A stretch of DNA of 64,000 bases, from the NCBI GenBank assembly GCA_963764165.1, contig CAVXRD010000002.1:1728001-1792000 (forward strand). The letters run 5' to 3'. A model generated the notes under the pieces. That model was given only the letters and a program-made list of their open reading frames with translations, was not told the origin of the DNA and ran no database searches. The position numbers were made by a program, and so were the translations under genes. The DNA comes from an uncultured Verrucomicrobiae bacterium. Its GTDB lineage: Bacteria; Verrucomicrobiota; Verrucomicrobiia; Limisphaerales; Palsa-1400. How positions within the stretch are numbered: position 1 is the stretch's first letter; each line of letters starts with the position of its first letter. Positions 6,998 through 13,100 of this stretch are shown one piece after another.

Positions 6998-7858
6998 TCA
7001 TTTTTGATTGGCTTCAGGCGTTACTTTGTCGATGTTCGGCGTGACGTCCGCGTCCACCTGGCCGGTTGACCACTTCAATCCGCCGAGCAAAATCTGCTGA
7101 AACGTCGGATCCATCCAAACTTCAATGCGATGCCCCAAACTGGTGTAGAAGACGCGCCCTTTGCCGTACATTTGAGCCCAAGTGGAGGGATAATTTGGGC
7201 GGTTATATGGCCCAATTTTTCCCATCTTCGCAGTGTCGTGATAAAGCAAAACGTGGAGATTTGGCGAAAAATTCTTCATCGAATACCACTCTTCCTCCGG
7301 GCCGTAATCATCCGCGACAGAACTGAGGCCGGGAAAATTGCGATCAGCCACCACCAAATGCCCCGGCACCCAGTGCTCGTAGTGCGTTACGAACTCGCCG
7401 CCGATCATTTGAATGAATGGATCGACCGTGTTGCCCTTGCTGTGAAACGTGTCTGTTGCGCTGTGAATGCCAACAAATCCCTTGCCGCCGCGAATTGCCG
7501 CGAGAAAAGCCTCTTTGCCGCCTTTGGGCATCGGCGGGTCATGGTGTTCGCCGAGTTCTGTCAAATCACCAGTCGTGTAAAAACAGAACGCATCGAAACT
7601 GGCGATTTTTTCCGGCGTAAAAATCGAACCGTCCTTCGTGAAGGTGAACCGCAAATTATTTGGAGGCCCCAATTCAGCCAGGATGCGCTCGGCCTGGCTT
7701 GGCCCGCCATTTTCGGAGCGAATCATGTCGTGCTGATAGCCGGACGATTTGGAGAAAAAGAGAATTTTCTTTGGAGTATCGCCGGCGCGCGCCCGCGGGC
7801 AAATGATCACCGCCGCGGCAAAGACAGCGGAGCAAACGAAGCAGAGGAAGTTTTTCAT
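6998..7858 (-). CDS. Secreted ThuA-like (class I glutamine amidotransferase-fold) protein
   Basis: Signal peptide; ILFFSKSSGYQH, GKGFVGIHSATDT, EEWY and GKGRVFYTSLGH motifs. Confidence 0.85.
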   Translation of the reverse strand: MKNFLCFVCSAVFAAAVIICPRARAGDTPKKILFFSKSSGYQHDMIRSENGGPSQAERILAELGPPNNLRFTFTKDGSIFTPEKIASFDAFCFYTTGDLTELGEHHDPPMPKGGKEAFLAAIRGGKGFVGIHSATDTFHSKGNTVDPFIQMIGGEFVTHYEHWVPGHLVVADRNFPGLSSVADDYGPEEEWYSMKNFSPNLHVLLYHDTAKMGKIGPYNRPNYPSTWAQMYGKGRVFYTSLGHRIEVWMDPTFQQILLGGLKWSTGQVDADVTPNIDKVTPEANQK

Positions 7859-8047
7859 TGGATCATCATTTTCTCCATCCAGTTAACCCGCTGCCACTCG
7901 CATTTGCCAACAAAAAGGCAGGAATGCATCGGCGCCTTCCCAATACGTCTTATAAGTCCTATAGGTACTATAAGTCCCATTCCCACTGGCCGGAAACCCT
8001 CGCATTTTGTGCTCGATTTCCCGCCCGGTTTGCGCCAGCCATTTCTG

Positions 8048-10936
8048 GTGAACACTATTCGAGGAACTCGTGCCGTGCTTTCCCTTGCGGCGATTTTATT
8101 CATCACCATTGCGCCCGCGCGCGCGGCGGATTCGCCGCCCCGCGAGAAACTGCTGCTGGATTTTGGGTGGAAATTTCACCTTGGCGATGACTGGGGCAAG
8201 AGCGAACGCCTCGACAAGGCGGGCGTGAATCCCGGCCCGGCTGGGCGCTCGTTTAACGACGCCCGGTGGCGCACTGTCAACCTGCCGCACGACTGGGTTC
8301 CCGAGCTTCCATTCGACCAGCACGCTGCCACGGACCACGGTTTCAAACCTGTCGGGCCGGGCTTTCCCTCGAATAGCATCGCGTGGTACCGCCGGACATT
8401 TTCGCTGCCCGCCGAGGACAAGGGCCGCCGCCTGATGTTGGAATTCGACGGCGTTTATCGCAATGCGCGCATTTACGTGAATGGCTATTTCCTCGGCCAT
8501 CATGAGAGCGGCTACATGGGATTCCGCTATGACATCACCGATTTGGCGCGATTCGGCAGTGACAACACTATTTCCGTCCGGGTGGATGCTTCGCAATTTG
8601 AAGGATGGTTTTATGAGGGCGCGGGAATTTACCGGCACGTCTGGCTCACCAAGACCAGCCCGCTGCACGTCGCGCCGGACGGAACTTTTGTTTACAGCCA
8701 GTTTCCGAAGAACATTCCCGAGGGCGCCGCGCTGATTCACGTCGAGACCAGCCTGCAAAACGACCAGGACGCCGGCCAGTCCGCCGCCGTCGAATGCGAA
8801 ATTCTCGATCCTGCCGGAAAAGCCGTGGCCCATTTTCAACAATCAGTGCCGGTCGAAGCGTGTTCCACTAAGACCCTGACGCAACTCGCGCCCGTCCAAT
8901 CCCCCGCGCTCTGGTCGCCTGAAACTCCGAACCTCTACAAGCTTATCACCAAGGTTTCGGTTGACAGTAAGGAAGTGGATCGCACGGAAACAGAATTCGG
9001 CATTCGCACCCTGGAATTCGATGCCAATCGCGGCTTTCTCTTGAACGGAAAATTCTGCGAGATCAAAGGCACCTGCAATCACCAGGACCACGCTGGCGTC
9101 GGATCCGCGCTGCCGGATCGATTGCAATTTTTCCGTGTGAGCCGGTTGAAGGATATGGGTGATAATGGCATCCGCACCTCGCACAACGCGCCGACGCCGG
9201 AGCTGCTGGACGCGTGCGACCATCTCGGCATGATGGTCATGGACGAAAATCGCCTGCTCGGCAGCGACGCGCAAAATTTGGATTACCTCGCCGCGCAAAT
9301 CCGGCGCGACCGCAATCATCCGAGCGTCATCATTTGGTCGCTTTTCAATGAGGAAGACACGCAAACCAGCCCCACCGCGCGAAACATCGCCGCCACCATG
9401 CAGAGGGTCGTCCATGAGTTGGACCCGACGCGCCTCTGCACCGCGGCTGGAAATGTCGGCAATGTTTATCAGGGCGTGAACAGCGTCCTGGACGTGCGCG
9501 GCTGGAATTATTATCCGGACTCCGTCGATGGCTACCATCGCGACCATCCGAACCAGCCGGAAATCGGCACCGAGCAGGCCAGCGCCCTGAGCACGCGCGG
9601 CATTTACGCCAACGACAAAACGCGCGGCTACATGAGCGCCTATGACACCAACGCGCCGCCGTGGGCCACCACCTCCGAGCATTGGTGGAAGATTTTTGCG
9701 GCGCGCCCGTGGCTCTCAGGCGGATTCGTATGGACGGGTTTCGACTATCGCGGCGAGCCGACGCCTTACACCTGGCCGTGCATCAATTCGCATTTCGGAG
9801 TGCTGGACACCTGCGGATTCGCCAAGGATAATTTCTACTATTATCAGGCGTGGTGGAGCGACCGCGTCGTGCTCCATATCTTGCCGCATTGGAATTGGGC
9901 TGGCAAGGAAGGGCAGGATATTGACGTGCGCTGCTACAGCAATTGCGAGGAGGTTGAAATGTTCCTGAACGGCCAGAGCCTTGGCCGCCAGACGATGTCC
10001 ACCAATTCGCACCTCAAATGGAATGTCAAATACACGCCCGGAACGCTGCTGGCGAAGGGATACAAGAATGGCCAGGTCGTCGCGGAGGACAAAGTCGAAA
10101 CCACCGGGGCTCCCGTCGCTGTCAAATTAACCGCGGACCGCACAACGATCGACGCAAACGGCGAAGACCTCTCCATTATCACGGTCGCAGTGACGGACGC
10201 CGAAGGCCGGATAGTGCCGCTGGCCAGCAATGAAATTCAATTCACGCTGCAAGGAAACCTCAAAGATCCAGCCATCTCGCCCGGAAAAATCCTCGGCGTC
10301 GGCAATGGCGACCCGAGCTGCCACGAGCCGGATGTGTATGTCCCGAGTCAGCCGAGCCATTCAGTGGGATTGCACGACTGGCGCTACAAACGCGGGCCGC
10401 ATTCCGAAGCCATGAAGGAAACCACCGAGAATTTCGATATCGGCGATTGGGTTTCGGTGGACACCAGCCGCGAGACCGGCCCTCTAAGTCCGAATACGGA
10501 CGCTGTGTTCCGCACCACGTTCGATGCCACTCCCGCGATGTTGAGCGCAACGGGCGTCAATCTGAATTTCGGCATGATCGATGACGAGGGACTGGTTTAT
10601 GTCAACGGCCACAAGGTCGGCGAATCGCACAATTGGGAGGAGCAGCCATCTTTTGCGGTCGGAAAATATCTGCACGAAGGTGTCAATACTATCGCCGTCA
10701 GCGTGCAAAATCACGAGGGCTCAGGCGGCGTCAACAAAGGCGTCTCGCTGGAAATCCTGGACCCGCCTAGGCCAACGGTGTGGAAGCGCAGCGTCTTCAA
10801 CGGCCTTGCCCAAGTTATTGTGCAATCCAGCAAGGTGCCGGGATTATTGTCACTCAACGCGACTTCGGATGGGCTGAAAACGGGGGGGCTGCTAATTACA
10901 GCAGCCAGTGCGACACCACGCCCAAGCGCGCCATGA
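8048..10936 (+). CDS. Glycoside hydrolase family 2 (beta-galactosidase-like), secreted
   Basis: LPHDW, LEFDGVY, WFYEGAGIYRHVWL, FGIR, GTCNHQDHAGVG, IRTSHN, RDRNHPSVIIWSLFNEE and WTGFDYRGEP motifs. Start set at GTG 8048, ahead of a signal peptide; the 7130 start in the ORF track overlaps the ThuA gene. Confidence 0.92.
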   Translation: MNTIRGTRAVLSLAAILFITIAPARAADSPPREKLLLDFGWKFHLGDDWGKSERLDKAGVNPGPAGRSFNDARWRTVNLPHDWVPELPFDQHAATDHGFKPVGPGFPSNSIAWYRRTFSLPAEDKGRRLMLEFDGVYRNARIYVNGYFLGHHESGYMGFRYDITDLARFGSDNTISVRVDASQFEGWFYEGAGIYRHVWLTKTSPLHVAPDGTFVYSQFPKNIPEGAALIHVETSLQNDQDAGQSAAVECEILDPAGKAVAHFQQSVPVEACSTKTLTQLAPVQSPALWSPETPNLYKLITKVSVDSKEVDRTETEFGIRTLEFDANRGFLLNGKFCEIKGTCNHQDHAGVGSALPDRLQFFRVSRLKDMGDNGIRTSHNAPTPELLDACDHLGMMVMDENRLLGSDAQNLDYLAAQIRRDRNHPSVIIWSLFNEEDTQTSPTARNIAATMQRVVHELDPTRLCTAAGNVGNVYQGVNSVLDVRGWNYYPDSVDGYHRDHPNQPEIGTEQASALSTRGIYANDKTRGYMSAYDTNAPPWATTSEHWWKIFAARPWLSGGFVWTGFDYRGEPTPYTWPCINSHFGVLDTCGFAKDNFYYYQAWWSDRVVLHILPHWNWAGKEGQDIDVRCYSNCEEVEMFLNGQSLGRQTMSTNSHLKWNVKYTPGTLLAKGYKNGQVVAEDKVETTGAPVAVKLTADRTTIDANGEDLSIITVAVTDAEGRIVPLASNEIQFTLQGNLKDPAISPGKILGVGNGDPSCHEPDVYVPSQPSHSVGLHDWRYKRGPHSEAMKETTENFDIGDWVSVDTSRETGPLSPNTDAVFRTTFDATPAMLSATGVNLNFGMIDDEGLVYVNGHKVGESHNWEEQPSFAVGKYLHEGVNTIAVSVQNHEGSGGVNKGVSLEILDPPRPTVWKRSVFNGLAQVIVQSSKVPGLLSLNATSDGLKTGGLLITAASATPRPSAP

Positions 10937-10938
10937 GT

Positions 10939-11042
10939 TAAAGGTAGGGACGCCTCGCCGAGGCGTCCGGTTGCGCGTGAATAATGCAAGGGGTCCTCGC
11001 ATAAAGAGCGCCTCACCCCGGACGCCTCGGCGAGGCGTCCCT
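10939..11042. repeat. GTAG-REP doublet, family A; right arm interrupted by IS1111-type element (remainder at 12478-12486)
   Basis: Left arm taaaggtagggacgcctcgccgaggcgtcc. Right arm ggacgcctcggcgaggcgtccCT stops at 11042 and continues as CTaccttta at 12478-12486. Confidence 0.92.
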
Positions 11043-11119
11043 GCTATGAATATTGTCAAGTGACTAAACGGGTTCTACGTCATTTTCTTTTTTTGTTTAA
11101 ATGTTTTGATCTTATTTCG

Positions 11120-11310
11120 GAGCGTTTCCTCTTCTGGGTTCGACGGAATGCTTCCGTCGTCCAACCTGCTATCCGCACTTGTTTTTCACAGTGCCATATG
11201 ACGTTTTCGTGTCGGAAGAGGAACGAGCGCGCCCAATCTACCTTTCGGGTTCAGTTCAACTGACCCAAGGGACGGGCGGGCGCGCGCCGTTCCAAAATCT
11301 AATTTTGGGT
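11120..11310 (-). ncRNA. Putative bridge RNA / seekRNA of the IS1111-type element
   Basis: On the minus strand: 5' hairpin (11292-11308); target-binding internal loop with guides CGUCCCU and AAAGGUAG; donor-binding loop with AUAGCAG and a partial ACGUCAUAU match, closed by stems 11126-11134/11215-11223. The RNA ends are estimated. Confidence 0.8.
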
Positions 11311-11350
11311 CTTCATTTTAAATGCTGTCTTTGGTCTTCCTTTCCCCGGC

Positions 11351-12430
11351 TCAGGCCAGGTGCAGCACGGCGGCGGTGGCCCGCCCGGTTTCCATCCGCC
11401 AAATGTCGATGGCCAGCTTGCGCGCGATGGCCACGATGGCTTTCTTGCGCGCGCCCCGGTTTTGGGTTTGGCCCAGCACCTCCCGCCATCGCACCACCGG
11501 CCCGTAGCTGGGCTGGTAGCGAATGACTCGCCATGCCAGTTCAATCAGCAGCCGCCGCAATCGGGGATTGCCGTGCTTGGTGATGGAGCCCGAGATGCTG
11601 TGGCTGCCGCTGGCCTGCACTCCCGGACACAGGCCCGTCAAGCTGGCGACCTGGCGGCGATTGGCGAACCGGTTCCAGTCGAAGACTTCGCGGCGCAGCG
11701 TTTCGCTGGTCAGCAGTCCGACTCCTTTGGGCTGGGGCTTGGCCTGGCTTTGGATCTTGATGGTCACTTCTTGCAGCAGCTTGTCGGCGCCGGCTGCCAG
11801 CGCGCGCAGGATTTCCAAAATGGAGGACAGCCAGGCGGGCAGTTTGGCTTTGTGCTTCACCCATGCCCCCTCCTTCCACCATTGCCCGCTGACCCGGTGG
11901 CCATTGTAAAGCAAGAGGCTGCGTCCTTGGGCCTCATGGGTTTGCCGGTCCTTTTGCAGCTGCTCGCGCAGGCGGGTTTGGGCCCGGACTTGTTCCTGCT
12001 CGGGGGTGGGCACGGTGATGACGGCCAGGGCCTTGCGGTTGCCCTGCACATAGCGGTCCAGCCGCTGAACCATGGCCAGGGCGTCGGTCTTGTCAGTCTT
12101 TACCCCGCGGCCCAACTCATCCCAGTTCTGGGGGCGGACAACGATGTTCTTGACGCCCATTTTCAGCAGCGCTCGATGCAGGGCGTAACCGAAGGCCCCG
12201 GCTTCGTAGCAACTATGCACTTCCCCGGCCAGAGTCAGTTGCTTGGCGGCGAACTTCAGGAAGTCCTCCGGTGTCATTTTCTGGGCCGGCTGAGGCGTGG
12301 CGTCATCGATCTGGCGCACGACTCGGTAACTGTCCGCGTGCACATCCACGCCCAGTTTTATCCGGGTGTATTTGCACGGTGTTTGTGTTTTATTGTTCGC
12401 GTGGGTATTGGTAACGGTGTTCTTTTTCAT
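11351..12430 (-). CDS. IS110/IS1111 family transposase (DEDD RuvC-like recombinase)
   Basis: GVDVH, CYEAG and KTDKTDA (D-E-D-D); C-terminal domain with GVGLLTS, GLCPGVQASG (catalytic Ser) and ITKHGNPRLRRLLIELAW, ending KKAIVAIARKL. Confidence 0.95.
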   Translation of the reverse strand: MKKNTVTNTHANNKTQTPCKYTRIKLGVDVHADSYRVVRQIDDATPQPAQKMTPEDFLKFAAKQLTLAGEVHSCYEAGAFGYALHRALLKMGVKNIVVRPQNWDELGRGVKTDKTDALAMVQRLDRYVQGNRKALAVITVPTPEQEQVRAQTRLREQLQKDRQTHEAQGRSLLLYNGHRVSGQWWKEGAWVKHKAKLPAWLSSILEILRALAAGADKLLQEVTIKIQSQAKPQPKGVGLLTSETLRREVFDWNRFANRRQVASLTGLCPGVQASGSHSISGSITKHGNPRLRRLLIELAWRVIRYQPSYGPVVRWREVLGQTQNRGARKKAIVAIARKLAIDIWRMETGRATAAVLHLA

Positions 12431-12491
12431 ACCTTGGTGTAGCACCCGTTGTGCTCACCTGCCAATACCCATGCCATCTACCTTTATCGCC

Positions 12492-13028
12492 CTAGTCCAG
12501 CACTCGGTAGTAGTAACTTGCCGCGCAAAAACCGCCGTCGGGGAATAACGCGAAATTCGGAACATCGCCCACCCGGACCCAGCCGAGTTTTTCGTAAAGC
12601 CGCGCGCCGTCGCTTCCCGTCACTGTGTCAAGTGTGAGCAGCGTCCGACCGCATTCGCGCGCGGTTTGCTCGGCCGCGCGCATCAGGGCCGCGCCCAATC
12701 CGCGCCGCCGCGCCCGGCGATGGACGAGCATTTTCATAATTTCGGCGCGGTGCTGCTGGTTCTCCGGGCTGGCCAGGCCAAGTTGCACTGTTCCACAAAT
12801 TCCCTGTTCGTCCTCAGCTACAAAAAGTATGCGCTCGCCGGACACGACGCCGCTCGCGACTTTTCGCCAAAAGTCGATGGCCCTTTCTCGTGAAACCGGG
12901 TTCATGAAATGCACGCTCGCGCCGCCCTGCACGCAGTCGACAAGAACGTCCGCCAACTGGAGAAGGTGGCGCTCCTCAACAGCATCCAATTTGCGCGGAA
13001 CCAATGAGCATGGAGACGCATCTGACAC
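12492..13028 (-). CDS. GNAT family N-acetyltransferase
   Basis: GASVHF, GTVQL, NQQHRAEIMKMLVHRRARRRGLG and LTLDT...LYEKLGW motifs; start GTG 13028 is an estimate. Confidence 0.88.
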   Translation of the reverse strand: MSDASPCSLVPRKLDAVEERHLLQLADVLVDCVQGGASVHFMNPVSRERAIDFWRKVASGVVSGERILFVAEDEQGICGTVQLGLASPENQQHRAEIMKMLVHRRARRRGLGAALMRAAEQTARECGRTLLTLDTVTGSDGARLYEKLGWVRVGDVPNFALFPDGGFCAASYYYRVLD

Positions 13029-13100
13029 GACGGCGAGATACAACCATGCCGGCCTGCGCGTCAATTTCAAATCGACGCTCATCCGGAATCACAAATATTA

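Follow-up and report, generated by a model that had tools for sequence, protein, structure and literature searches.

Does the non-coding DNA behind an IS110-family recombinase gene of an uncultured Verrucomicrobiae bacterium encode an RNA loop that reads the ends of the very element that carries it? The window, that is, the whole stretch of DNA analysed (64,000 nucleotides), contains such a gene, and the initial annotation had proposed a donor-binding loop at positions 11126-11223, with an extra hairpin and an imperfect left guide. We conclude that an IS110-family element very probably encodes here an IS1111-type bridge RNA of which this segment is the donor-binding loop, and thus part of a known kind of RNA-guided system. 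The element and its surroundings comprise the following features.

11041-12479, minus strand: IS110-family recombinase element with IS1111-type layout
11351..12430, minus strand: IS110-family recombinase, 359 aa, open frame, with DEDD residues D29/E76/D113/D116 and S274 conserved
11041..11047, plus strand: core CT and right donor, the right end of the element in transposase orientation, equal to the right guide at 7/7
12471..12479, plus strand: left donor (7 bp) and second core CT
12480-85: target right half, directly after the second core CT
10943..11042: REP-like palindrome with arms at 10943-68 and 11020-42, the right arm ending in the target left half and core CT
11046..11064, minus strand: subterminal inverted repeat, imperfect, 3 bp inside the core, matching the repeat of the other end at 14/19 positions
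12454..12472, minus strand: left-end subterminal inverted repeat, lying 7 bp in from the end with the core counted
7130-10936: flanking gene for a family 2 glycoside hydrolase
12492-13082, minus strand: flanking gene for a GNAT acetyltransferase

The recombinase carries the domains PF01548 and PF02371, scores 166.9 bits against NF033542 (cut-off 140) and, as is characteristic of the IS110 family, combines a RuvC-like DEDD domain with a Tnp domain bearing a conserved serine. Across 56 homologues D29, E76, D113 and D116 were invariant and S274 was retained in at least 90%; by analogy, these residues would have the catalytic roles. The closest named elements by recombinase were ISSso6, ISEc45 and ISRel9, at 27-30% identity, and the three closest genome matches reached 67-70%. 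No named element in the plasmid collection exceeded 36% identity to the recombinase, a single-protein search of solved structures returned no match for it, and the IS621 protein is remote (profile E 0.0009). The element extends about 310 bp beyond the recombinase stop codon compared with 49 bp ahead of its start, and a long downstream non-coding region is a trait of the IS1111 group.

The element runs from the core CT at 11041-42 to the core CT at 12478-79; this two-base core is present at both ends and the insertion shows no further duplication, as in other members of the IS110 family. The inverted repeats lie 7 and 3 bp inside the ends, the spacing of the IS1111 group, and their imperfect identity in the window element (14/19) is accompanied by a median of 9 identical positions of the inner 12 among homologues (n=64). 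A genome search showed the element to be single-copy in the 7.0-Mb genome, in which the REP-like palindrome is abundant (at least 150 blastn matches). Since 114 of 400 genomic copies of the REP arm end run on with the same five bases that are found after the other end of the element, its removal restores a usual REP end. The GNAT acetyltransferase and glycoside hydrolase genes converge on this REP. In a public sequencing run, one contig that is about 90% identical covers 11018-12483 and then departs into a different flank.

Several related sequences bear on the ends and their junctions. In a metagenome contig of a 69% relative (L026:593), the right end, core and left end are directly joined and the contig end repeats its first bases; this contig is a circle or a collapsed tandem. 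No RNA run was among the sequencing runs listed as containing the sequence, no joint was found in four contig sets from sequencing runs, and viral contigs contained only one partial homologous locus. A hexamer resembling a -35 box lies at 11054-59, within the right-end inverted repeat, and is a putative promoter element, a promoter made by joining the two ends being a trait of the IS1111 group; its spacing to the core differs between homologues, and a promoter scan of the natural joined-end junction of L026 returned 0 consensus promoters. Another terminal-repeat contig (L056, positions 1-120 and its end) has a junction without three bases, as if crossover had occurred at an earlier AG, representing either a genuine mis-cut circle or an assembly artefact. 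Downstream of the gene in L091, the right end of the element is joined in inverted orientation, precisely at CT, to the DNA that encodes the element's left target guide, a joint that looks like self-targeting half-match recombination. In the window's genome, near position 1230405 of contig C1 (minus strand; G000), a second REP copy ends in CT, after which come the eight bases found at the element right end, with no element behind them, possibly a scar, or chance. Finally, copies on contigs C41 and C50 of genome G995 (L161-L163) are flanked by repeated target words, with two copies in tandem.

The non-coding region behind the gene would encode a bridge RNA with two loops, made up as follows.

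11117..11295, minus strand: predicted bridge RNA of about 180 nt, closed by pairing of 11288-95 with 11117-24, with modelled ends
11227..11287, minus strand: target-binding loop, with a left target guide at 11268-76 and a right target guide at 11238-45, a hairpin between them at 11247-67, and handshake bases at 11236-37
11126..11223, minus strand: donor-binding domain, its outer helix closing a multi-branch loop, with 8 pairs counted in 31 homologues
11196..11204, minus strand: left donor guide, with the constrained part at 11199-11202 (positions 3-6) and the strict part at 11199-11200
11175..11194, minus strand: inner hairpin between both donor guides, from RNAalifold
11166..11172, minus strand: right donor guide of 7 nt, matching 11041-47 at 7/7
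11164..11165, minus strand: putative donor-loop handshake bases (GU), which follow the right guide as in IS621
11141..11159, minus strand: extra hairpin lying 3' of the right guide, whose place and shape are conserved and whose sequence is not

The target-binding loop behaves as expected of a bridge RNA in that it covaries with many different flanks. The left target guide matched the element's own flank at a mean of 7.8/9 in 60 homologues, compared with 4.4 for shuffled pairings and a shuffled maximum of 5.1, and positions 8-14 of the right target guide matched in 62, 62, 59, 57, 45, 32 and 21 of 62. In agreement with the IS1111 group, the guide order is reversed relative to the IS110 group, the first guide of each loop reading as the strand opposite the gene. 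The plus-strand fold of the domain was also considered and rejected, being weaker and not in the coding sense. The handshake rule is only partly kept in this family: complementarity between the target-loop handshake bases and donor positions 7 and 6 was seen in 44/65, and Watson-Crick complementarity between the first donor-loop handshake base and target position 7 in 64/96.

We collected homologues in two steps, 98 loci first and 75 more afterwards. A right guide was recognisable in 83 of the 97 first-set loci having a protein match, 77 of them distinct, and the second set added 48 distinct loops, giving a total of 125 distinct loops at 32-73% protein identity. Excluded were duplicates, loci without a recognisable right guide (14/97 in the first set, 7/75 in the second), L052 and L082 for a left end that is one base shorter, L141 for a deletion, and L145 and L173 for an unclear left register. 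The register or the ends were set by hand for L009, L012, L014-L017, L021, L116, L128, L134, L147 and L151. In the first set, the hairpin arm was picked by a score that uses guide letters 3, 5 and 6, and first-set matches are therefore favoured at these letters. The second set was anchored on a motif upstream of the left guide, with two guides set by hand, so that its register is mostly independent of the guide letters. Paired changes are parsimony counts on a FastTree tree; a quick tree was also used.

Two kinds of altered RNA were seen among these loci. Behind the RNA of L001, about 50 bases comprising the right guide, extra hairpin and outer-helix arm are duplicated, and the sister copy L003 is without the duplication. 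The RNAs of L135, L141 and L144 are damaged, each in one of three ways: by an interruption that follows the left target guide, by loss of the donor loop's left half, or by loss of part of the right guide.

The right donor guide proved correct as proposed. It equals the element end at all seven positions, where the chance expectation for this 7-mer in the 290-nt non-coding region is 0.04, and guide and end agreed at 7/7 in 103 of 104 elements with the end present, the single exception being L080, which has an unpaired guide change. Because the search patterns for guides and ends fixed most letters, invariance elsewhere is partly built in and right positions 10-11 alone are a fair test. Six end sequences occur among homologues, with all four bases at position 10. 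Eight guide and eight donor changes were counted at position 10 and two of each at position 11, all on the same branches. The covariation with donor ends that had been named as a check is seen in homologues, as 10 paired changes on the right and six at left positions 5-6; these numbers are small because the donor ends are nearly invariant. With the agreement in 103 of 104 elements, the 10 right-hand changes uphold the donor-loop assignment.

For the left donor guide, the letters of the window are as described in the initial annotation: against 12471-79 it matches at 6/9 (positions 1, 3, 5, 6, 7 and 9), with a wobble at position 4 and mismatches at position 2 and at the core position 8, which corresponds to 11197. 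The register is supported too, as it gave the best match anywhere in the RNA across 74 homologues, with a mean of 5.5/9 compared with a median of 3.2 at other offsets; a search of the same 74 RNAs found no better left guide elsewhere. It is also the register of IS621. Over 105 homologues the mean was 5.6/9, and positions 1-9 matched exactly in 75, 14, 84, 54, 105, 104, 61, 48 and 44. Positions 5 and 6 had 4 and 2 paired changes, and in the second set both matched in 33/33. Position 4 had 29/105 plain mismatches, and most of its 20 donor changes were unpaired, while positions 2, 7, 8 and 9 had 26-35 guide changes against 0-2 donor changes, a drift that extends to near-identical multi-copy elements. 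Donor positions 1-2 are fixed in the DNA and position 2 is unmatched in the RNA, which may be because they lie inside the inverted repeat. In L052 and L082, where the left end is 6 bp, one base shorter, and the inverted-repeat spacing is 6 and 3, the left guide matches six bases including the core.

Such a weak match invites the reading that DNA pairing is confined to the right guide, the left strand being structural and the left end being read by the protein through the inverted repeat together with the target-loop handshake bases. We regard this as unlikely. In its favour, the mean of 5.6/9 falls short of the 7.8/9 of the left target guide (n=60), 47 of 121 left strands match neither core base, in about 20 related elements no more than 4-5 positions match, and the available part of PMC11187229 points to inverted repeats for end recognition. 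One flexible rule applied to both loops likewise gave 7.8/9 for the left target guide (n=60) and 5.5/9 for the left donor guide (n=74), with the two core bases matched in 57 and 52 of the former and 40 and 28 of the latter. A purely structural strand is, however, at odds with the paired changes at positions 5 and 6, which occur in L099, in L115, in the group of L111, L123, L146, L148 and L170, and in the L048 group, and with the lack of any unpaired change at position 5. We therefore retain the left strand as a guide.

Whether the window copy is partly or wholly inactive, with a decayed left guide, is a separate matter and seems improbable. It is the sole copy in its genome, and it has no match at core position 8, where the majority of its closest relatives have one. 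Yet 6/9 is the commonest score (41/105), the same position-8 base occurs in 30/105, and the recombinase reading frame is open. Moreover, the position-8 match is absent from the multi-copy elements of G054 (five copies with 0-1 differences at different flanks) and from the near-identical copies of G911 (five) and G995 (four of five checked); where an element has several such copies, each in its own flank, we took this to indicate recent movement. On the homologous sequences, the weak left guide is a family-wide rule and not a defect of the window copy.

The initial annotation had also offered tgccat (11192-97) as an alternative pairing. The stretch is present, and in the window copy it is an exact 6-nt complement that could base-pair with the left donor's top strand. 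Only the window element has the exact match (1/105), the chance expectation for exact left-donor 6-mers in the 98-nt domain is 0.17, and half of the stretch lies inside the conserved inner hairpin. This pairing is refuted as a family feature, and that it reads the left donor here is very improbable.

The fold of the domain was then compared with the structure first drawn. Its letters are all in place, namely the 9-bp outer helix 11126-34/11215-23, gcact/agtgc and the 8-bp hairpin 11141-59. The 111-nt domain folds with z = -3.1 (0/200 shuffles as good), and within a 201-nt RNA the pairing probabilities were 0.46-0.98 for the outer helix, 0.56-1.0 for the extra hairpin and 0.97 for the gcact hairpin, with 0.53 for its fifth pair. 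In 31 homologues the outer helix was paired in 100% of cells, with 8 pairs counted and 2 pairs changed on both sides; the best outer helix reached at least 8 bp in 108/121 sequences (median 9 vs 6.9 shuffled). The inner hairpin had changes on both sides at three pairs, in 3, 14 and 15 of the 31 sequences. The outer helix and the extra hairpin occurred together in 89 of 121 full-length ensembles. The ccaac/gtcgg helix fared differently: the letters are there, with one G-U on the minus-strand RNA, but the helix is not supported, having a probability of 0.01. No pair of it changed on both sides in the 31 close homologues, the full 5-bp version is possible in 9/77, and it would also consume both handshake bases; base 11215, moreover, had been assigned to the outer and the inner helix at once.

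In the 31 close homologues RNAalifold paired the middle segment with the 5' leader, not with the 3' tail; a conserved two-state switch was rejected, as it did not rise above shuffles across 121 sequences (median 7 vs 6.7). A column-wise test of the whole structure first proposed did no better than shuffles (36-404 of 500), partly because the extra hairpin cannot be aligned, and we therefore folded the extra hairpin sequence by sequence. Lying between the handshake bases and the outer helix, it folded in 75 of 77 homologues compared with 16 of 76 downstream control segments, and in 48/48 of the second set, a set without control, by a criterion of at least 4 bp and -3 kcal/mol. The median energy was -9.1 kcal/mol and the median z -2.1 for a median segment of 28 nt, with p ≤ 0.05 in 43/77. 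The extra hairpin is thus real, and since it retains a shape but no particular sequence, it is probably a scaffold or a protein contact. Both features noticed in the window copy, hairpin and weak left guide, stand, but their implied peculiarity does not, as they are common to the family.

The mechanism that we propose is as follows. The bridge RNA would be read out of the non-coding DNA that follows the recombinase gene, in the direction of that gene; its first loop would select the REP-like target, and its second, donor, loop would recognise the joined ends of the excised element. The right guide would pair with the core and five right-end bases. The left guide would pair mainly with left-donor positions 3-6, which lie in the short spacer separating the core from the inverted repeat, and core pairing would not be required. 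The extra hairpin would make the loop a multi-branch junction. Strand exchange, established at the CT core for IS621, would take place at the same core here. Sequences, boundaries and covariation are observed; the window's bridge RNA would itself be transcribed and pair in the complex, with the single copy presumably active.

We tentatively suggest, with more doubt than belief, that this is a variant donor loop in which reading by RNA is limited to the short non-palindromic spacer that separates the repeats (strictly 2-4 bases on the left and 7 on the right) with no left core pairing, the protein reads the rest of the left end, and the extra hairpin is an essential docking arm. If so, the junction on the RNA-gene side would be held by two long guides and the gene-start junction by two short ones. 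The reaction could then be ordered, one end first, which would explain why IS1111 elements keep inverted repeats.

Among known systems, ISEc45 (L174) shares about 30% protein identity and a similar right-guide motif and hairpin behind the gene; its right end was not found with the pattern used. An Rfam search returned no relevant family, only one microRNA-family match on the REP (E 0.91). IS621, in the available parts of PMC11208160 and PMC11208158, resembles the window element in having the target loop before the donor loop, a CT core, a REP-like target, 7-nt right guides followed by two handshake bases, and a left donor guide that ends three bases before the inner hairpin. It differs in that its RNA lies upstream of the gene and its donor loop is a simple internal loop. 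As described there, the IS621 left donor guide is 8 nt long, takes in the first core base but not the second and, position 7 apart, tolerates mismatches poorly, the ninth position not being a guide position. In the window's family positions 2 and 8 are also free (14/105 and 48/105 matched) and the right guide is without a bulge; with its multi-branch loop, the family thus departs from the IS621 type of left guide.

The IS1111 group (ISEc11, ISPa11 and ISKpn4) is closer. By the descriptions available from PMC11187229 and PMC11208160, it shares the RNA behind the gene, the subterminal-repeat spacing, the reversed guide order, the multi-branch donor loop and the absence of extra target bases. PMC11187229, in the part available, places the subterminal inverted repeats 7 and 3 bp in from the ends, with 6 and 3 also allowed, and describes them as near-perfect over 11-13 bp, unlike the imperfect repeat of the window (14/19). 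It also reports that ISEc11 moved with an 82-nt target-only RNA; the donor loop may therefore be dispensable in some assays. The portion available of PMC11208160 places the donor-binding bases in a multi-loop in many IS1111 orthologues. The surprise implied by the initial annotation was therefore overstated too, given this layout and the non-guide ninth position of IS621.

As far as these texts go, two research groups disagree on whether IS1111-type ends are recognised via RNA or via protein and inverted repeats. The paired changes favour RNA reading of both ends, but in a lopsided way, and single out right positions 10-11, and left positions 5-6 as against 2, 7, 8 and 9. For genome engineering, the prediction is that the family's donors can be programmed fully at the right end but only in part at the left. 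No statement on short, core-free IS1111 left donor guides was found in the available text of PMC11208160, PMC11208158, PMC11187229, PMC13626964 and PMC13604230, or in that of bioRxiv 10.1101/2025.10.25.684509, 10.1101/2025.05.14.653916, 10.1101/2024.01.24.577089 and 10.64898/2026.08.31.748434; a short left guide may be visible in Extended Data Fig. 10c of PMC11208160, which gives the guides of three IS1111 elements. The extra hairpin fits the layout already described and the donor loop is of a known kind, so that the apparently short, core-free left guide of the window's family is the sole point that may go beyond it.
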